From the NCBI GenBank assembly GCA_049322915.1, contig JBMOPW010000029.1:1-64000 (forward strand): a DNA stretch of 64,000 nucleotides, written 5' to 3'. Below, one piece after another: positions 44,959-53,571 of this stretch. Both the position numbers and the translations under genes were made by a program. This stretch comes from Candidatus Zhuqueibacterota bacterium (GTDB lineage Bacteria; Zhuqueibacterota; Zhuqueibacteria; Thermofontimicrobiales; Thermofontimicrobiaceae). Within the stretch, counting starts at the first letter, position 1, and each line of letters begins with the position of its first letter. The notes beneath the pieces were generated by a model. The model was not told the origin of the DNA. It ran no database searches and saw only the letters and a list, made by a program, of their open reading frames with translations.

Positions 44959-45081
44959 TCCTGATACTCCTCATACAGATAGTTATTCAAGCTACCGGAT
45001 CGCTCCGGAGACAGTTCAGATTTCTTCAGATCGTTGTTATTCATTCTCTGACAGCATTACATTTTTCCCGTGAACCACGGA

Positions 45082-46107
45082 TCAACCGAATCGCTCCTCT
45101 TTCGGGCCTCGCGTCATCAACTCGTTCAGGGCGTCACGGGCATTTTTATTTTGAAAAAGCACCTGATACGTCTGGTTAGTAATGGGCATTTCCACGTTGT
45201 ATTTCTTGCTCAATTCATAGGCGGATCGGGTTGTCTTCACACCTTCGGCCACCATCACCATCTCCTTCAAAATATCGTCCAGCTTTCGGCCTTTGCCAAT
45301 CTGCTCGCCGACGTAGCGATTGCGGCTGTGCTTGCTCATGCAAGTGACGATGAGATCGCCCATGCCAGAGAGACCGGCAAATGTCTCCTGGTTCGCGCCC
45401 ATGGCAACGCCCAATCGAACGATCTCCACCAGTCCGCGAGGCTGTAGCGCCGCTTTGGTGTTATCGCCGAATCCGGCGCCGTCGCAAATACCGGCCGCAA
45501 TGGCGATGATGTTCTTCAATGCGCCGCCCAGCTCAACGCCGACAATGTCCTGATTGGTGTAAACGCGGAAATAGCGATTCATAAAAACTGATTGCACGAA
45601 TTCGGCTGTCTGAAGATTGGGACACGCCGACACAATCGCTGTCGGTATTTTTCGACTCACTTCTTCCGCATGGCTCGGGCCGGACAGCGTGACGACTTTT
45701 TCCTCTTCAGCCCAACTCACATTTTCCAGAATCACCCGGGACATGCGCAGCAATGACTCGTTTTCCACGCCTTTGGCCACATTGACCAGGACTGTATGGC
45801 CCAGGCCGGACAAGCGATCCAACCGTTTGCTGACTTCTCTGACAACGTGGGACGGCACTGCAACAACAATGATGTCTTTCCCGACGCAGGCAGCGTCAAA
45901 ATGATTGGTGACAGAAATTGCTTCGGGCAGAACAATACCCGGCAAGAACTCGCCGGCGTCCCGCGTCCGATGCAACTTCTCCGCGGCCTCGGGACGAAAT
46001 TCCCACAGATCAACCGTGTGGCCATTTCCCTCCAGCACCATCGCCAACGCCATACCCCAACTGCCGGCGCCAAGCACGGCGATCCTGTACGTTTTTTCGT
46101 TCATCAC
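45082..46107 (-). CDS. gpsA: NAD(P)H-dependent glycerol-3-phosphate dehydrogenase
   Basis: 'GAGSWG', 'SGPSHAEEV', 'GGALKNIIAIAAG', 'GDLIVTC..SRN'. Confidence 0.97.
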   Translation of the reverse strand: MMNEKTYRIAVLGAGSWGMALAMVLEGNGHTVDLWEFRPEAAEKLHRTRDAGEFLPGIVLPEAISVTNHFDAACVGKDIIVVAVPSHVVREVSKRLDRLSGLGHTVLVNVAKGVENESLLRMSRVILENVSWAEEEKVVTLSGPSHAEEVSRKIPTAIVSACPNLQTAEFVQSVFMNRYFRVYTNQDIVGVELGGALKNIIAIAAGICDGAGFGDNTKAALQPRGLVEIVRLGVAMGANQETFAGLSGMGDLIVTCMSKHSRNRYVGEQIGKGRKLDDILKEMVMVAEGVKTTRSAYELSKKYNVEMPITNQTYQVLFQNKNARDALNELMTRGPKEERFG

Positions 46108-47108
46108 GCGACCTCGCCGACGATAATGGGTTGCTGATTTTGTTGCTTTAAAATATCCACTGCTTTGTGGACGGCATAGCGATCGATGATGAAAATATAC
46201 CCAACGCCCATGTTAAAAACGCGTCGCATTTCTTCTTCATCGACCTTGCCCAATTGCTGGATCATCTGGAAAATTTCCGGCGCCTGCCAGCTCTCCCAAT
46301 CGATATTCACATGCAACGTTTTGGGCAGAACGCGCCGTGTGTTTCCCACGATGCCGCCGCCGGTAATGTGGGACATTCCGTGCAGATACGGCTCGTGCCG
46401 CATGGCCAGAATGGATTCACGGTAGCTGCGATGAACGCGCAACAATTCCGCGCCCAACGGTGTCCCGAATTCCTCGATATAATCATCCACTGTGTAGTGG
46501 TGCAGCTCAAAGAAAACCTTGCGGACGAGCGAGTAGCCATTGGTGTGCAAGCCGTTGGAAGGCAGTCCCACCAGAATATCGCCCTTTTGGACAGTCGTTC
46601 CATCGATGATTTTCTGTCCGTCAACTAACCCGACAATCGTCCCGGAAATATCGTACTCGCCAGCCTGGTAAAAATCGGGCATTTCAGCCGTCTCCCCGCC
46701 GACAAGCGCGCAGCCGTTATTTTTGCAGCCACGGGCCATGCCTTCGATGATTTGCGTGACAACGTCGCCTTTCAATTTGGAGACAGCCAGATAATCGAGG
46801 AAAAACAGGGGCTCTGCCCCGGAGGTCATGATATCATTCACGCAGTGGTTCACCAGGTCCTCGCCCACGGTGTTGTGAATGCCGGTCATGAACGCAATTT
46901 TCAGTTTGCTGCCAACACCGTCCACGCTCGAAACGAGAATGGGGTCTTGCAGCGTTTCCGTTTTGATGCGATAAAAGGATCCGAACAGACCGATGTCGCG
47001 CACGACATTTTCATTGAACGTCTGTTTGGCCAGCCGGGCAATGTCTTTCACACTTTCGTCGCCGGCGGAAATATCAACGCCGGCGTCTTTGTAGGTTATT
47101 CCTGCCAT
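46104..47108 (-). CDS. purM: Phosphoribosylformylglycinamidine cyclo-ligase (AIR synthetase)
   Basis: 'TYKDAGVD', 'DGVGSK', 'GGETAEMP', 'GLHTNGYSL', 'HITGGG', 'VFNMG'. Confidence 0.97.
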   Translation of the reverse strand: MAGITYKDAGVDISAGDESVKDIARLAKQTFNENVVRDIGLFGSFYRIKTETLQDPILVSSVDGVGSKLKIAFMTGIHNTVGEDLVNHCVNDIMTSGAEPLFFLDYLAVSKLKGDVVTQIIEGMARGCKNNGCALVGGETAEMPDFYQAGEYDISGTIVGLVDGQKIIDGTTVQKGDILVGLPSNGLHTNGYSLVRKVFFELHHYTVDDYIEEFGTPLGAELLRVHRSYRESILAMRHEPYLHGMSHITGGGIVGNTRRVLPKTLHVNIDWESWQAPEIFQMIQQLGKVDEEEMRRVFNMGVGYIFIIDRYAVHKAVDILKQQNQQPIIVGEVA

Positions 47109-47145
47109 TTATCTCAACTCACTCCATGTTCGTGTGTATTGGGAA

Positions 47146-47688
47146 TTATTCGTTGCCTTGAATCATGCATTCATATTCTTTCATGTAGATTTTTCTCAAT
47201 CGCGCTAAAAATTCAATGATCACCATTTCGCGGTAATCGGGATAGGTCCAATCGTTGACCAAAAATTTCCCATGCCGATAGCGCAGATGAATATCGCCGT
47301 AAATGCCCTTGCCCAAATACACCCGGTGATCGAAATTCTTGGTCGTCGCCAGCACCACTTTCGCGCCGGTCAAATAGCCGGGATCAATATTGACGGATCG
47401 TTTCCCGTCAACAGTAAAATCCGCTTCGATGGCGTTTGTCCTTAATTTAATGTCCGCCAGTGTATCTTTCGCGATCAGGATTTTGAAACCCAGTAATTGC
47501 TTCCTGAGATTGAAGCCCATTTCATGGGAGTAGTATTGCGTATAAATGAACTCGAATACCGCCGACTGGATTTCAATCGGCCCGAACTCCTGTTCCAGCA
47601 CCGGCTTGAGTTTCTCGTACGTCTCGTCATCGCGAAATGTGATTGCGGCGAACAGCTTTACATCGACCGCTAATTTTGGTTGTCCCAT
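47146..47688 (-). CDS. DUF4416 family protein
   Basis: 'TQYYSHEMG', 'RSVNIDPGY..VVLATTKNFDHRVYLGKGIY', 'WTYPDY'. Confidence 0.85.
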   Translation of the reverse strand: MGQPKLAVDVKLFAAITFRDDETYEKLKPVLEQEFGPIEIQSAVFEFIYTQYYSHEMGFNLRKQLLGFKILIAKDTLADIKLRTNAIEADFTVDGKRSVNIDPGYLTGAKVVLATTKNFDHRVYLGKGIYGDIHLRYRHGKFLVNDWTYPDYREMVIIEFLARLRKIYMKEYECMIQGNE

Positions 47689-47734
47689 GAAAAATAACCA
47701 GCTAAACCATAAAGGTATATTTGATAAACATCTT

Positions 47735-47762
47735 AAGATAGCAATAAATTTATAAATGTCAA
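47735..47762 (-). promoter_or_regulatory. Putative sigma70 promoter for the DUF4416-purM-gpsA-asnS run
   Basis: Minus strand TTGACA-N16-TATCTT. Confidence 0.5.
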
Positions 47763-47873
47763 GCAAAAAATCAGTACTCACCGCGTTCGATTTCCACGCG
47801 AAATACCCTGTGCGGCTGGCATCACCGGCGTAACTTCCCCGGCGAAAGGCTGTCAAAAATCAGAAGTTTTTTC

Positions 47874-47903
47874 TTGACTTTAACTGAAAATATCTTATAT
47901 TAT
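47874..47903 (+). promoter_or_regulatory. Putative sigma70 promoter of tRNA-Leu
   Basis: TTGACT (47874) with TATATT/TATTAT at 16/18-bp spacing, about 10 nt before the tRNA. Confidence 0.6.
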
Positions 47904-47912
47904 AGCGCAATT

Positions 47913-47996
47913 GCCGAGGTGGTGAAATTGGTAGACGCACTGGACTCAAAATCCAGCGTTCGTAAGAACATGCGGGTTCGATTCCCGCCCTCGGCA
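47913..47996 (+). tRNA. tRNA-Leu (CAA)
   Basis: Acceptor GCCGAGG/CCTCGGC-A; D-loop TTGGTAGAC; anticodon arm CTGGA-CTCAAAA-TCCAG; long variable arm; GGTTCGATTCCC; CCA not encoded. Confidence 0.97.
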
Positions 47997-48009
47997 CACA
48001 TTGATAATC

Positions 48010-48042
48010 AAGGACTTAGATATTTTTCTGAGTCCTTTTTTT
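48010..48042 (+). terminator. Intrinsic terminator after tRNA-Leu
   Basis: AAGGACTTAGA/TCTGAGTCCTT stem followed by a T-run. Confidence 0.7.
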
Positions 48043-48267
48043 ATCTTCATTTTCCAAAAATATTTACCCCAATTCAACTCATTTTAACAGATTTTCTCTC
48101 TTCTTTGTCACGTCTGCGTCACGTGCCAATGCTTGTTGGTCATCATTCATTTCAAATAAAAATTAAAAAAACTCTTGACAACCGGAACGGAAATTGCCTA
48201 TTAGTTCATTTGACCTGTACTCAAAAATTTAGTATATTACGGGTAGTAAACATAGGAGGACAGGTCA

Positions 48268-49083
48268 TTGAAAGCACGAAGCAATTTACTCAATCGCCTT
48301 CGGGCGAAAACATTTGAAGCACTGTTCATTGTCAAATTAACCAAAGACTATTGCCTATCCCCAGTTGAAGCATCCACGCTAACCAGGGATGTTCAGCAGT
48401 TTATCGACACCAATGCCGACGCCATTGTTCAGGAAGGCGAAATCTTTTTTACGGCTGTTCTCAATAACGAACTGGCCGGCAAGCCCCTGAAGCAATGTCG
48501 CACCCAACGGATAAAGCTCTGTGTCTATCCGCCCGAATTGGTTGAGTTATCGTATCAAGACTTGAAACAGTTCCATTTCATCATGGTCTCTCGTCTCGCT
48601 TGGCAGGCACTTGGTCAGGGCTGCTGCCTCAGTCAGGAAGACCTGGCCCGACTGGTTCATTGCAGCGTCAGCACCATCAGACGGATCGTCAAACAGTATC
48701 GCCACCTGGAACAATGCCTGCCGACGCGTGGCAATCATTGCGATATTGGCCCGGGGATTTCTCATAAGGCCGAAGCGATTCGGCGTTATCTAAAAGGCGC
48801 CACGGTCTCGGAAATTGCCATGACTATGGCGCATCATCCGCATTCCATCGAACGGTATTTGGATGATTTCTGCATGGTCGTCTCAGGGTATGCCACGGAT
48901 CACTTCTCGGTCACCAGGTTATGCCGCACTTTGAAATTGAGCGAAAAACTGGTCACCGAATATATCGAATTGTACCACCGTTTCCAAAAAGATCCAGACT
49001 GCCAATTCCGATTGGACCAGCTATTAACCCGAATTGATGCGCTATTTAATCGCACCCAAAAAAACAATCGGAGGCTGCCATGA
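48268..49083 (+). CDS. DUF1670-like multi-HTH protein A
   Basis: 'QALGQGCCLSQEDLARLVHCSVSTIRR..LPTRG..DIGPGISHK..EIA..H..SIERY'; AGGAGG RBS, TTG start. Confidence 0.8.
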   Translation: MKARSNLLNRLRAKTFEALFIVKLTKDYCLSPVEASTLTRDVQQFIDTNADAIVQEGEIFFTAVLNNELAGKPLKQCRTQRIKLCVYPPELVELSYQDLKQFHFIMVSRLAWQALGQGCCLSQEDLARLVHCSVSTIRRIVKQYRHLEQCLPTRGNHCDIGPGISHKAEAIRRYLKGATVSEIAMTMAHHPHSIERYLDDFCMVVSGYATDHFSVTRLCRTLKLSEKLVTEYIELYHRFQKDPDCQFRLDQLLTRIDALFNRTQKNNRRLP

Positions 49084-49865
49084 CAACGACACCAGCAACG
49101 CGAAGCATGGCCAAATCCCTGTATGGCCCCAGTCAGCAAAAGACGCTGCATAATCTGCTCAAACGAGAATTGGTGTTGAATTTCGGTTTTGAGAACAAGT
49201 TGAAAATTGCCGACGTATTGATCGATTCCCTGTTGGAAATAGTTGACACTTATGGCAAAGATAAGCAAAAGATTCAACCCTATCAAACGGTGTGGCCAGC
49301 GGTGGCCAAAGACGATTTCCCAGGTTATGGCAAGACCATGGCCGACACCCACTATATACCCGTGGTTTTAACCCTGTGGACGCCCGATGAATTGGAGCAA
49401 TTGGCCAATGGGCAAAATCCGAAATCTTTGACGCCGCAACGCATTGCCCGATTTTTCAAGCAGGCATTCGAACAGGGCGCGGTGCTGTCCAGTATCGATG
49501 TCGGATTGATTTTGAATTATTCTCCATCGCGAGTCAGTCAACTGCGCCAACATTGGGAGAAAGATCACCAGGAAACCTTGCCATCCAGGGGCAGCTACCA
49601 CGATTTGGGGCGGACGTTTACTCATAAACAGCAAATCGTTGCCTATCATCTTGAGGGCTTGATGCCATCAGAAATCGCCCGTAAAACAGATCATGATCCT
49701 GCCTGTGTGGATCGCTATATCAGAGATTTTGAAAGAACAGTCCCATTCTTCGAAGAAGGTCAACCCATTGCCAAGATTGCCTTCTACACGCGGCTGAGTG
49801 AATCGTTGATAAAAGAATACCGAAAAATTTATGAACAAACAATTGGCTGCTATAAAAAGACATAG
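49080..49865 (+). CDS. DUF1670-like multi-HTH protein B
   Basis: 'QAFEQGAVLSSIDVG..LPSRG..DLGRTFTHK..EIARKTDH..VDRY'; ATGA overlap with A. Confidence 0.8.
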   Translation: MTTTPATRSMAKSLYGPSQQKTLHNLLKRELVLNFGFENKLKIADVLIDSLLEIVDTYGKDKQKIQPYQTVWPAVAKDDFPGYGKTMADTHYIPVVLTLWTPDELEQLANGQNPKSLTPQRIARFFKQAFEQGAVLSSIDVGLILNYSPSRVSQLRQHWEKDHQETLPSRGSYHDLGRTFTHKQQIVAYHLEGLMPSEIARKTDHDPACVDRYIRDFERTVPFFEEGQPIAKIAFYTRLSESLIKEYRKIYEQTIGCYKKT

Positions 49866-49902
49866 TTTCTGATAATTCCTTTTGAGTAGGGGTCAATTGA
49901 TA

Positions 49903-50099
49903 CTATTCATACTTTGGTAAAAATGAGTTAAGTTGTGAAAAAAAGGTTTTACCTGATAGCATTGGTTACCTCCTCAATTGGTGTGAAGGTAATATAATGC
50001 TATAATTGGAAAATATATACAAAAATGTAGAAATAGCTTGTGATGCCCTATTTTAGCGGACATCCCGAGCGTCATTCAATAAACAACGGGACACTAGTG
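49903..50099 (-). mobile_element. 5' remnant of an IS4-family (DUF4372-type) insertion sequence
   Basis: Minus strand CACTAGTGTCCCGTT end-like sequence from 50099; GAGGAGG RBS; ATG 49962 encodes MLSGKTFFSQLNSFLPKYE then TAG, resembling the DUF4372 transposase N-terminus. Confidence 0.6.
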
Positions 50100-50117
50100 A
50101 ATTCTTAATTGTCGCTG

Positions 50118-51302
50118 TCAGGAGCTTTCATTCAAAATTTGTTCAAAATTCTCAAGAAAATCATCGATCTGCTTTTTCGATATGATTAGCGGTGGATCGA
50201 TTCGAAATACATTCAAGCCCGGACGGCGGGCAATGATGTAACCTCGCCGAATGCATTTTTGATATAAAGTATCCATGAATTCGTTCGAAGTCGTTTCCTG
50301 AAATTCAATCGCGATCATCAATCCTCGGCCGCGGATTTCTTTAATAAACTGGTAGCTATTTTTTAGCTGGAATAACCGCTCCAGAAAATAGGCGCCGATC
50401 TGGTTGCACTTTTCGATAAGATTTTGTTCCTTCAGGACGGTAATGACCTGCTTCGCCACCGCACTTCCCAGCGGATCGTTCTGATGCGATTGATGATAAT
50501 GAAACGAAATCTGATCCAAAATAGCGATGATCTCCCGGGACATGGCAATCGCACTTACGGGAAAGCCGTTGCCCAGTCCCTTACCGATGGAAACAATATC
50601 CGGATGCATGTCATAATGTTGAAATCCGAACCATTTCCCGGTTCGCCCCATCCCGGTGGTAATCTCATTAATCTGGATGAAACCAGAATGCTGTTTGATT
50701 AGTTTTGAAATATTTTGAATCAATGATTTTGGAGGAAATCTGACCAATCCCGATGAGCTGCCAGGCTCAAACACAAAGCCGCCTATTTTTTCGAACGGAA
50801 TTGTTGATAAATGCAGGCAGCCTGGATCACAATCATCTAAATTCGGACAGGTGGCACAATCCCGCCAATCAAACAGATGCCATTCGTCCTGGCTTCTATT
50901 TCCCGCCGAACCGTATGATCCCAGGAAAGAATCAGATAGGGTAAACAGCAAGGGTTTGTTGGAAACGTTCCTCAAAACCTACACGCCAAACTCAACCGCT
51001 TCACTTCCTGAACAGAGCAAGACGCACTTGCCATTCCAAAATCCCAAAACATCGAGAATTTCTGTGGCGGCTTCTTCTATGATTGGATTCGTATAGCAGT
51101 AACCGGTATGGATGATTTTATCGATTTGTGTTTTAATGGTATGATTTATTTGGGAGTGACAATGACCCAGTGAAGTACACCAGATCCCCGATTCCATATC
51201 AAGATACTGCTTTCCATTCGAATCAAAGAGATAACAACCTTCGGCTTTTTTAATATTGGGCAGGATTAGTTTGTGCCCAATACACCAGCGTACATGATCC
51301 AT
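50118..51302 (-). pseudogene. Class-III PLP aminotransferase interrupted by in-frame TAG
   Basis: 'YLDMESGIWCTSLGH..CSGSEAVEFGV*VLRN..NEITTGMGRTG..PDIVSIGKGLGNG..RGRGLM'; stop at 50979-50981, both halves in one frame. Confidence 0.8.
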
Positions 51303-51344
51303 TTCAGCTCCGAATCCCTGTTAAAAACTTTACCTTGTTATTTT

Positions 51345-51875
51345 TCAATTTTGAGTGGATGGGATATTTTGTTTCAGCACAACGGCGATCGACTTTGCCC
51401 AGGCTGTGATCGCCTCCCAATCCCGAAAATCCCCGATCGGGGCGTTGACCTTTTTGATCATCCATTTCTCGATCCAGCTCAATTTATCGATGTCCGTGGC
51501 GCCATGAAAAATAGTGATGTCTTTGGGCTGAATGCGGTCAGCGATTGGTTGCAGTGATTTGGGGAAGCGCCAGCCTTTCATCAATTCTTCAATATTTCCC
51601 TTTTCGGTGGGGCCACTGGAAAATAGCCACACCAGCTTATTTGCCAGATTTTTTTCGTTGGACTTTAAGAATTTTGCTGCTTCTTTGCGCCAGCGGCCAA
51701 TATAAGTTGCACTGCCCAGAACCACTGATGGGTAAGGACTTAAATCCTTAACCCGATCCGCTGGCAGAACCTCAATAAGCAGACCTGCCTGACCAAGCAC
51801 CTGTCCGATTTTCTCGGCAATCCCTAGCGTTGCACCGTATTTGGTGGCATAAGCTACCAGAACTCTATTATTCAT
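51345..51875 (-). CDS. Flavodoxin-domain protein (HemG-like)
   Basis: 'VAYATKYGATLGIAE', 'VWLFSSGP', 'GDFRDW'. Confidence 0.88.
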   Translation of the reverse strand: MNNRVLVAYATKYGATLGIAEKIGQVLGQAGLLIEVLPADRVKDLSPYPSVVLGSATYIGRWRKEAAKFLKSNEKNLANKLVWLFSSGPTEKGNIEELMKGWRFPKSLQPIADRIQPKDITIFHGATDIDKLSWIEKWMIKKVNAPIGDFRDWEAITAWAKSIAVVLKQNIPSTQN

Positions 51876-51905
51876 TCCTTCCTCCAATTTTAAACTGAAA
51901 CATAC

Positions 51906-53090
51906 TTATTTTATTTGTGATAAAATTTCCTGAATTTGCCGAATAATTTCAAACTTATCAAAAGAAGAAACATTGCCAATCAAAGCAATGGAATAATTTT
52001 TCGATGGTGAATAGAGTGCAATCGCTTCAAAACCAATGAATAATCCTTCGTGTCCCCAGTATTCATAATTATTGATGTTGAAACGTGTCACAGCCAGTCC
52101 ATAACCAGTCCAGTAAGGATGATCTTTGTTATCGACATTTACAAAATTGACCATACTTTTTAGCAATGTGTCAGACACCAATCCACCATCAAAAAGTGCA
52201 TTGATAAATGTTAATTGTTCGTTGGCAGTTGTTGCCATGGCGCCTGATGTAAAGGCAAGCGAAGCCCAGGCGGTATTGTCAGGCTTGTGCTGATACAGTC
52301 CTGGCCAGGGCAAAAGATCACTATCAAAGCCTGGGATGAGATTTTGAGGAATTTTGGCTTGAGGCAAAAGATATGTTGATTTCAGCTCAAGCGGCGTTAT
52401 AATCTCATCTTCGAGCAAACTTCCGATGGATTTTTTATAAACATGTTCCAGAATAAAGCCGAGGATAATATAGTTTGAATTGGAATAATGAAAATCAGTG
52501 CCTGGCTTGAAATAAGGTTTTTGTTTTGAAATTATTTTTAGTAATTCAGACGGCTTCCAATTTTTATGCGGGAATATGGATTTCATTTTGACTGAGAAAC
52601 TTTCAAGAATCTCCCTCAATCCACTCGTATGGTTTAATAACTCTATTAGTGTAATTTTTTCTGAGTTTGGTATTCCAGGAAACCACTTTGCAAGTGTATC
52701 AGGCAATGAAATTTTACCCTGTTCCACAGCTTTGAGTGTGAGCACCGCTGTATATAGTTTTGTAACGCTTCCGATCCGTAACATAGAATCATTGGTCAGT
52801 TGAATTTCTCGTTTTGGAGTCAACGTGCCACTCGTTCCTATCCAATGGGACTGATCGGGAAATTTGATAGCAAGCTGCAAACCAGGTATTTTCTGGTCAT
52901 TGACCGATTGATCGAGGATTTTTTGAATTCCAATAATTATTTCCTGATTTTTTTGACTAGTGTACTCATGTTGATTCCTAATTACAGGCGAATAATCTCG
53001 AATAGATCCGCTGCATCCAATACTCAAAATTAGAAAAAGCAAACTACCTGTGAGGAAAGTTGTTAGTTTTAATTTTTTATACTTACTCAT
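51906..53090 (-). CDS. Serine hydrolase, beta-lactamase/DD-peptidase family, probable lipoprotein
   Basis: SxxK 'GSVTK', 'LLNHTSG', 'YSNSNY', 'GHEG'; lipobox-like 'SIGC'. Confidence 0.88.
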   Translation of the reverse strand: MSKYKKLKLTTFLTGSLLFLILSIGCSGSIRDYSPVIRNQHEYTSQKNQEIIIGIQKILDQSVNDQKIPGLQLAIKFPDQSHWIGTSGTLTPKREIQLTNDSMLRIGSVTKLYTAVLTLKAVEQGKISLPDTLAKWFPGIPNSEKITLIELLNHTSGLREILESFSVKMKSIFPHKNWKPSELLKIISKQKPYFKPGTDFHYSNSNYIILGFILEHVYKKSIGSLLEDEIITPLELKSTYLLPQAKIPQNLIPGFDSDLLPWPGLYQHKPDNTAWASLAFTSGAMATTANEQLTFINALFDGGLVSDTLLKSMVNFVNVDNKDHPYWTGYGLAVTRFNINNYEYWGHEGLFIGFEAIALYSPSKNYSIALIGNVSSFDKFEIIRQIQEILSQIK

Positions 53091-53166
53091 AATTAGTTAT
53101 TAGTCGTTTAGTAATCGGAGAGTTACAGGTTTGGTAAACAAAACAGCTTTACTAAACCTCACAGGT

Positions 53167-53571
53167 TTAGGAAAGCTTACCTTTATAGCCTGACAATTTC
53201 ACCATAAAAAAAGCAGCCAGAAACGCTTCCAGCAAACTCAATGGGACAGCGACATACAACAATCCATTGGGTAACACCCCCAAATTTCCGATGACAACCC
53301 ACATCAATACAAAAACGACAAACCAGGAAAGCAGAGTTGTCTGAATTAAGGAGAATTATTTCGAAATGAAAAAGACGGCGACTGCAAATAATAAAGACCA
53401 TAGTCCCCACAGTGCACTGTTAAGCGGCTCTGACGGAAAAACCAGCCCGAGCGTTTTGTTATACTCCGTCCAGTATGATTTGACCAATCGCTCGTTCCTC
53501 ACAAATTCAGATACACTGATCCAGATCGTTGCCAGTAAAATTGGCAGGATGGTCTTTTTTATAAAATTCAT
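53167..53571 (-). pseudogene. Small membrane protein with in-frame TAA
   Basis: Frame continues past TAA (53356-53358) as FSLIQTTLLSWFVVFVLMWVVIGNLGVLP..KLS*. Confidence 0.7.

Follow-up and report, generated by a model that had tools for sequence, protein, structure and literature searches.

A two-gene DUF1670 insertion sequence probably carrying an unrecognised transposition protein

This work describes a small mobile element in a genome of Candidatus Zhuqueibacterota. The window analyzed is a 64,000-nucleotide stretch of DNA (contig JBMOPW010000029.1 of assembly GCA_049322915.1, positions 1 to 64,000 of the forward strand); coordinates without a label are window positions, G000 denotes the source genome, and C20 is another of its contigs. 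Positions 48197 to 49906 hold an intact copy, 1,710 bp long and on the + strand, of an undescribed insertion-sequence family whose only genes encode two paralogous DUF1670 proteins. The first gene, orfA (48268 to 49083, + strand), has a TTG start and encodes 271 amino acids; the second, orfB (49080 to 49865, + strand), has an ATG start, encodes 261 amino acids, and overlaps orfA through an ATGA. In a Pfam search, both products were full-length members of DUF1670 (PF07900; 220 model positions), scoring well above the gathering cutoff of 25 bits: orfA reached 129.3 bits (E value of 1.8e-37, model positions 2 to 220), and orfB reached 179.2 bits (E value of 1e-52, model positions 4 to 220). The orfA product also matched the helix-turn-helix (HTH) families HTH_23, HTH_28, and HTH_29. 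Paralogy is evident from BLASTP (26% identity over 190 amino acids, E value of 3e-20) and from a profile-profile comparison that returned a probability of 100% over 240 columns. Among the matches listed for orfA, 24 of the 32 that follow the window's own record are likewise 271 amino acids long. An initial annotation of this DNA, made from the letters alone, had proposed two paralogous, ATGA-coupled DUF1670 open reading frames (ORFs) between inverted repeats, and the ORF calls, Pfam, BLASTP, and the repeat search agree with it. The same annotation had described DUF1670 as lacking an assigned function, and Pfam indeed gives "unknown function" only. In source records, members are named "DUF1670 domain-containing protein," "hypothetical protein," or regulators; the names of the last kind are wrong.

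The left terminus and its inverted-repeat arm occupy 48197 to 48226 (+ strand), with the core TCATTTGACC at 48206 to 48215, while the right terminus and arm occupy 49880 to 49906 (+ strand) and read GGTCAATTGA followed by TACTAT. The arms at 48206 to 48226 and 49880 to 49900 match at 18 of 21 positions, the value initially reported, and none of 500 mononucleotide shuffles of the 100-nucleotide flanks equaled it (maximum, 17). The reported spacing was also confirmed: the left arm ends 41 nucleotides before the orfA start, and the right arm begins 14 nucleotides after the orfB stop. Relative to the right end, the left arm is asymmetric, with 4 extra outer nucleotides and a 1-nucleotide indel. 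Because a repeat search lists 32 inverted-repeat pairs within the 2.5 kb, the inverted repeat alone is weak evidence; what makes it convincing is the presence of the same ends in other genomes. The left terminus, CCTATTAG..., recurs in 9 copies of the element found in other genomes and in metagenomes, and the right terminus, ...ACTAT, is common to the second copy in G000 and to foreign copies. All copies of the subfamily begin with CCTATTAGnTCATTTGACC, and the complete ones finish with GGTCAnnTGAnnnTAT, which places the termini of the window copy at 48197 and 49906. The ends had initially been set at 48202 and 49905, with either CTATT on both sides or an inner pair of ATT flanks as the duplication. 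Both readings were rejected; the flanking repeat is 2 bp across copies and is imperfect in the window copy. The right-hand CTATT consists of the element's last four bases, CTAT, and the flanking T at 49907, and a right-end sequence with CTAT is conserved in a different subfamily (type 1 of genome G039, described below).

Assembly data from two sources touch the same boundaries. In run X1, one unitig starts at 48197 and the flank unitig ends at 48226, and another unitig ends at 49907 with the right-flank unitig starting at 49878, each junction having a 30-nucleotide overlap. Run X1 holds 94% of the stretch and is probably the source sample, so these breaks are not independent evidence. A contig of a separate study (X3) matches the right flank starting at 49905 (4 differences in 195 nucleotides) but has unrelated sequence upstream of it, and it therefore represents the right flank without the element. 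The 15-nucleotide motif found upstream of the right flank in X3 is not present in G000, where the single match with 1 mismatch is unrelated.

The source genome contains a second, 5'-truncated copy (G000:C20:36876-37304) that is 99% identical to window positions 49479 to 49907. Identity between the two stops right after ...GGTCAATTGATACTATT / ...GATACTATT, and the next base differs; a further copy with the same ends, which the initial annotation had suggested looking for, thus exists in truncated form and shares the right boundary. In all, the left end occurs once in G000 and the right end twice (at most 4 mismatches). Relatives of the same subfamily were gathered through orfB, through DNA searches of the phylum, and through a left-end pattern scan of metagenome contigs, in which 23 loci resolved on reading into 9 real elements and 14 unrelated sequences. 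Full copies range from 1,713 to 1,900 bp (L039, L040, L052, L056, L060, L062, L063, and L068). The elements L039 and L056 are near-identical, and the left flank of L049 repeats the right flank of its neighbor L052, so the flanks of these two loci are not independent. The left end lies near a contig edge in L046 and L051 and further inside in L049 and in the remnant L069, and L041 holds a right end. One locus, L045 (G014:C84:13142-13223), is an 82-nucleotide miniature with both ends and TA/TA flanks, in which the left end, extending as far as the Shine-Dalgarno region, runs into the right end at a shared GGTCA. Defined ends in different flanks are thus common to the truncated C20 copy, the 9 foreign copies, and the unitig breaks. 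A tblastn search with orfB gave no match among plasmid records. Separately, a 1,116-nucleotide contig of X1 shares only 48434 to 48485 with the window (52 nucleotides, 4 differences) before running into unrelated sequence; it could come from another truncated or divergent copy that is present in the sample and absent from the assembled genome.

Ten copies retain both ends and flanks (the window copy, L039, L040, L045, L052, L056, L060, L062, L063, and L068), and a perfect 2-bp direct repeat surrounds 9 of them, being TA/TA in 8 and CA/CA in 1. Since one copy has CA/CA, the dinucleotide comes from the target and is not a fixed element sequence. The flanks of L040 form a (TTCATTA)n array, and taking out the element together with one TA restores the heptad register exactly, which is an internal reconstruction of the empty site. 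A target logo of 13 left flanks gives A, T, T, and A at positions -4 to -1, each in 12 of 13, and a weaker T-T-A appears at positions +7 to +9 (13 left and 11 right flanks). The left flanks end in T and then A in 12 of 13 cases, and TA follows the element in 9 of 11 right flanks. Insertion by this subfamily favors AAT|TA in AT-rich intergenic DNA and produces a 2-bp target duplication.

Beyond this subfamily, the distribution of PF07900 is patchy: 12 of 41 close relatives have it, as do 28 of 167 genomes across the phylum, and the genes almost always come as neighboring pairs. Homologous pairs carry flanking inverted repeats, contrary to the pairs in conserved synteny and without such repeats that the initial annotation had named as fatal to its proposal. 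On a larger scale, 883 DUF1670 cluster representatives were retrieved at an E value of at most 1e-3 among 1.84 billion, with taxa spanning bacterial and archaeal phyla. The complete genome G039 has 26 PF07900 matches, which correspond to 13 elements of two types. Type 1 is present in 6 copies that are 99.7 to 100% identical over about 1.86 kb. Type 2 is present in 7 copies; of the 6 compared with the reference, 5 are 99.4 to 99.8% identical and L038 is 92.6% identical. A congener, G111, contains a single DUF1670 pair and has uninterrupted sites for L028 (type 1; the flanks map adjacent, with a 2-nucleotide overlap) and for L034 (type 2; a 5-nucleotide overlap, of which 3 nucleotides are ambiguous with the element end). 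Empty sites, another check that had been proposed for the window DNA, are therefore available for these relatives.

The elements of G039 resemble the window element in their ends and depart from it in their targets. The type 1 right end, GGTCATATGATACTAT, is nearly identical to that of the window, and GGTCAwwTGATACTAT is the right end of the window element, of G039 type 1, and of L007. Like that of the window, the type 1 left end has several extra outer bases and a 1-nucleotide indel relative to the right arm. The type 2 repeats differ and read AGGAAAwwTTTCCGGTAGG. In G039, the flanking duplication is TT/AA, not TA, and all 7 type 2 copies and 4 of the 6 type 1 copies are inserted in the final Lys codon, behind its second base, of genes for type IX sorting-domain proteins (PF18962 was found in 6 of 6 host proteins tested). 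Each of these last-codon elements supplies "A TAG" or "A TAA," so that the host protein is unchanged. Of the other two type 1 copies, one abuts a type 2 end and one is located elsewhere. At L029 (about 0.51 Mb) and L030 (about 1.35 Mb) of this genome, type 1 and type 2 elements lie side by side, and at L029 each element abuts the end of the other, recreating the "AA|ATAG/ATAA" target. Further relatives are bracketed by repeats that match at 17 of 18 positions (L007 and L008) and 15 of 18 positions (L009); L010, at 14 of 18, is unclear. The repeats of L009 (G002:C2, about 84 to 85 kb) are different, GTTGTGCCATATGGCAAC, and its flanks are mutually complementary (gaactccttcg ... cttcggagttc), as if the element had inserted in the loop of a small hairpin. 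On the evidence of its copies, their duplications, and the empty sites seen for relatives, the window element is almost certainly mobile, and the initial idea of an insertion-sequence-like unit with only two DUF1670 genes and no recognizable transposase is upheld.

The left end also appears to carry control signals. A putative promoter at 48210 to 48238 (+ strand) has a -35 box, TTGACC, within the repeat core, a 17-nucleotide spacer, and a -10 box, TATATT (10 of 12 consensus positions). TTGACC, the 17-nucleotide spacer, and TAnnnT recur in every one of the 10 subfamily copies whose leader is intact; the remnant L069 is without the TAnnnT. Overlapping this promoter is a predicted fold-back stem at 48205 to 48272 (+ strand), in which the inner left repeat pairs with AGGAGG (48254 to 48259) and the TTG start. 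Its minimum free energy is -21.8 kcal/mol (z score of -3.4), and none of 200 shuffles was equally stable. In single-sequence folds, the Shine-Dalgarno sequence is paired with the repeat arm in the minimum-free-energy structure of 10 of 10 copies, and the divergent L068 has changes on both sides of the stem with pairing kept. RNAalifold gave no consensus structure on a MAFFT alignment of the leaders because the Shine-Dalgarno region is out of register in that alignment, and a hairpin at the right end was not significant (z score of -0.6). Because an mRNA made from the element's own promoter would begin beyond the 5' arm, the stem would silence read-through transcripts only; we infer that it forms only in transcripts begun outside the element. 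At the right end, a weak, outward-facing promoter-like site lies at 49897 to 49924 (TTGATA, 16 nucleotides, AAAAAT; 9 of 12 consensus positions), with its -35 box inside the element, and in other copies this box is a perfect TTGACA. This site could drive neighboring genes.

Confident AlphaFold2 models of A (predicted local distance difference test score of 86, predicted template modeling score of 0.47) and B (90.9 and 0.73, respectively) have the same architecture: three N-terminal helices are followed by a beta-hairpin and a winged helix, after which a conserved linker leads to two further helical, HTH-like modules. Across 62 A-type sequences, E68, G71, K72, C77, L121, E124, D125, P152, R154, G155, D159, G161, H166, H189, and Y197 never vary. 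Across 76 B-type representatives, the same is true of G177, H182, H205, and Y213, and P168, G171, D175, and K183 are kept in at least 90%. The set shared by A and B, LP.RG...D.G...(S/T)HK ... H.......Y, falls largely in the linker and loops and not in recognition helices. Given this location, and given that end sequences differ between subfamilies, the shared set resembles a site of catalysis or assembly more than a surface for reading DNA. Structural neighbors in the ESM Atlas are all DUF1670 clusters, and its feature matches (at most 0.82) are small HTH_23 proteins that serve as leads only.

Other DUF1670 architectures bear on how the two proteins might work. Natural fusions contain two units in about 505 to 545 amino acids or three units in about 930 to 952 amino acids; in P0229, an A-type unit (residues 2 to 276) precedes a B-type unit (residues 275 to 519), the same order as in the genes. 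Because orfA and orfB are translationally coupled and such fusions exist, A and B probably act together. Proteins of other architectures were also seen (P0189, P0191 to P0193, P0242, P0268, and P0313). P0242 joins DUF1670 to a DnaG-type CHC2 zinc ribbon, and DUF1670 forms of about 415 to 435 amino acids have an unassigned 190-amino-acid extension at the N terminus, which is found within the triple-unit proteins as well.

On balance, we lean toward the DUF1670 pair itself being the catalyst of transposition, a reading drawn from gene content and residue conservation. The promoter with its -35 box in the left repeat would drive orfA and the coupled orfB, and in transcripts reading in from outside, the left repeat would pair with the ribosome-binding site and start codon, which would keep outside transcription from activating the element. 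A and B, as chains of HTH modules, would assemble as a hetero-oligomer on the two unlike ends, repress their own promoter, and form a synaptic complex. Residues common to both proteins (Asp, Gly, His, His, and Tyr, together with a Lys that is kept in at least 90% of B-type sequences and is the consensus in A) would form a new active site in or around the LPxRG...DxG...(S/T)HK linker and the HTH that follows, to which subunit A alone would add Glu68, Lys72, Cys77, Glu124-Asp125, and Arg154. This site would cut the ends and make a 2-nucleotide staggered cut at AAT|TA in the target, with repair giving the 2-bp duplication. A covalent tyrosine intermediate, by analogy with topoisomerases, in which the catalytic Tyr is likewise part of a winged-helix domain, is one possibility. 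Carried to its full extent, the proposal is that DUF1670 A/B constitute a new catalytic transposase class: an all-helical, multi-HTH heteromer without an RNase H, HUH, tyrosine-recombinase, or serine-recombinase fold that uses an Asp-His-His-Tyr site joined by a consensus Lys and, from A, by Glu, Lys, Cys, and Arg, and that makes 2-nucleotide staggered target cuts. In this specific form the proposal is tentative, slightly more apt to fail than to hold. Under it, some lineages would have traded loose AAT|TA sites for one particular codon of type IX secretion genes.

A number of results weigh against a self-mobilizing DUF1670 pair, some of them concerning this particular locus. The window copy has TG on its left (48195 to 48196, within AAAT-TG, which keeps the preferred AAT) and TC on its right (49907 to 49908), the places of the 2-bp duplication, and the repeat is thus imperfect. 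The right flank of the truncated C20 copy is TG, the same as the left flank of the window copy, so that exchange between the two copies could explain TG/TC; a tblastx comparison of the C20 flanks and the window right flank with the tRNA-Leu loci of seven relatives gave 0 matches. G000 holds one intact copy only, no empty site for the window's own copy was found among 20 relatives, and neither a joint or circle junction nor an excision product was seen in contigs; among the sequencing runs listed as containing the stretch, none is an RNA run. Other results concern the proteins. Pfam assigned both to DUF1670 and HTH families only, with no transposase or ATPase domain. NCBIfam returned nothing above its cutoffs for either protein; the best match, to IS630 (NF033545), reached 16.4 bits against a cutoff of 100 (E value of 0.0047) over a 26-amino-acid HTH at residues 122 to 147, and the IS21 model NF033546 scored 13.8 bits against a cutoff of 160. 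PHROGs gave weak HTH matches only, and the Protein Data Bank (PDB) contained no relevant solved relative by sequence or profile. Foldseek found no PDB match for A at an E value of at most 1e-3, and an exhaustive fold search (VIA) retrieved only winged-helix and TrpR-like DNA-binding domains (best Z score of 6.1 for A and 6.3 for B).

These fold searches barely cover the N-terminal ~90 residues, which for that reason cannot be called devoid of a known fold. With the same limit, neither model has an RNase H-like DDE/D fold in its lists of Foldseek and VIA matches. A Phage_integrase-type domain, which would carry an R-K-H-R-H/W-Y set, gave no Pfam match at an E value of at most 0.1, and no integrase fold is among the matches listed. 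HUH transposases combine an HUH motif and a Tyr in an RRM-like fold and make no target duplication; here there was no Pfam match to them, the models are mostly helical with one beta-hairpin, and a 2-bp duplication is present. For serine recombinases, with their resolvase-type domain and nucleophilic Ser, there was also no Pfam match, and the alignments are limited to the HTH domains of Sin and Tn3 resolvase (Z scores of 5.0 to 5.5). The invariant H...H...Y lies in or next to the HTH helices at residues 166 to 175 and 191 to 210 of the A model, and a His...Tyr in this position could serve DNA binding or folding. Lastly, B is without most of the invariant polar residues of A.

In one alternative, A and B only recognize the ends and choose the target, with a recruited host enzyme (a nuclease, topoisomerase, recombinase, or replication or repair factor) performing breakage and joining. 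The models consist of DNA-binding-type modules with no known catalytic fold found, the precise last-codon choice of relatives in type IX secretion genes resembles the work of a targeting protein, and the fusion in P0242 hints at contact with a replication protein. However, the family spans so many bacterial and archaeal phyla that the recruited enzyme would need to be universal. In addition, His, His, and Tyr are invariant in both A and B (as is Asp in A, with at least 90% conservation in B) down to about 26% identity, and since end sequences differ between subfamilies, this conservation exceeds the needs of end recognition. We consider recruitment of a host enzyme unlikely, although it survives better than the other rivals.

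Alternatively, the DUF1670 genes could be passenger regulators in a nonautonomous element that is moved in trans by an unlinked transposase, for example, one of the IS630/Tc1 type. The TA duplication and the HTH_23, HTH_28, and HTH_29 matches recall IS630/Tc1-mariner elements, and there is the 82-nucleotide miniature L045, which has both ends. However, the miniature is single-copy in G014, a genome (85% complete) without a detected DUF1670 gene, and no amplification of it was found there. All full-length copies seen carry the DUF1670 pair and no other gene. Most tellingly, ends occur in G000 only at DUF1670 copies, and in G039 the terminal 16- and 17-mers of type 1 occur exactly 6 times each, only at the six elements, with 4 matches at 2 mismatches, the same number as for a reversed-pattern control (4). 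Because the ends occur nowhere else in either genome, mobilization in trans by an unlinked transposase is very unlikely.

The surroundings of the element raise a last alternative. A tRNA search placed tRNA-Leu(CAA) at 47913 to 47997, 200 nucleotides to the left, and an Rfam scan matched only this tRNA. Within 48000 to 53200, to the right of the tRNA, G+C content is 0.35 to 0.46, compared with 0.47 to 0.55 on its left, and 49908 to 51300 has no homologous match among the 20 relatives apart from two marginal ones (G006, 126 nucleotides, 70% identity, E value of 2.5e-7; G018, 29 nucleotides, E value of 3.9e-4). The left flank of the window copy is conserved in relatives, and in G001, of the same genus, homology ends near 48135. 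The tRNA-Leu may border a variable region or island, with the element arriving there later. At 50118 to 51302 (- strand) is a class-III-aminotransferase-like gene with one in-frame stop at 50979 to 50981 and an unchanged frame on either side, which may be a pseudogene or reflect a sequencing error. It is scarcely credible that the locus is a nonmobile two-gene regulator operon with operator repeats, or a tRNA-Leu islet placed by a site-specific integrase: the nearby tRNA, the low-G+C, unmatched DNA on the right, and the operator-like position of the -35 box inside the left repeat would fit, but this account is contradicted by a second copy with the same end at another locus, by the same ends in different flanks in other genomes, by 2-bp duplications in 9 of 10 copies, and by the empty sites of relatives. 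Nor is the element joined to the tRNA, because G001 shares the tRNA and about 140 nucleotides beyond it; other copies are not beside tRNA genes, and no integrase-type ORF was apparent by eye among the 47 ORFs of at least 50 amino acids in 45000 to 53000, where no integrase-profile search was made.

We regard the element as an insertion sequence with a probable, so far unrecognised transposition protein. To our knowledge, all described bacterial insertion-sequence families are defined by DDE/DEDD, HUH, tyrosine recombinase, or serine recombinase transposases. Full-text literature searches found no paper on DUF1670 or PF07900, although description under another name is possible, and found nothing on an HTH-only insertion sequence with a TA target or on one that inserts at the stop codon of type IX secretion genes. 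What emerges is a widespread mobile element whose only proteins are two HTH paralogues annotated as being of unknown function or as regulators. If the pair is the enzyme, it would represent a new way of cutting and joining DNA, and its small size (about 530 amino acids in total) and the very high target precision of some lineages would give it appeal as a tool. Otherwise, the element would reveal a host activity that is open to hijacking for transposition. Either way, DUF1670 elements are invisible to current insertion-sequence annotation and break metagenome assemblies. The longest contig is shorter than 3 kb for 105 of the 120 orfA homologues listed, a weak hint of such breakage because contigs in that collection are generally short.

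In behavior, the closest known elements are those of IS630/Tc1-mariner, for which a published report (PMC2170065) describes, for example in ISY100, inverted repeats, TA duplication, and end binding through paired HTH motifs. Like them, the DUF1670 element is small, has terminal inverted repeats, makes a 2-bp duplication that is mostly TA (8 of 10 copies), and carries no genes but its own; end binding by paired HTH modules would be expected as well, given the HTH matches of orfA. Unlike them, it has no recognized DDE/D domain and falls far below the family model, it has two paralogous genes instead of one together with asymmetric ends, and its sister subfamilies duplicate TT/AA and are site specific for the last codon of type IX secretion genes. 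The apparent need for more than one element-encoded protein recalls IS21 and Tn7-type transposons. Tn7 inserts with high precision at attTn7, and the relatives that target type IX secretion genes likewise pick a harmless site precisely. In contrast to the IS21 and Tn7-type systems, the DUF1670 element has no recognized DDE transposase or AAA+ ATPase, its two proteins are paralogues of each other, and its duplication is 2 bp, compared with 4 to 8 bp for IS21 and 5 bp for Tn7-type elements. Finally, fold-back inhibits read-through transposase mRNA in IS10 and IS50, and the end of the DUF1670 element is similarly predicted to pair with the ribosome-binding site, a likeness known here only from folding and from its conservation in 10 of 10 copies.

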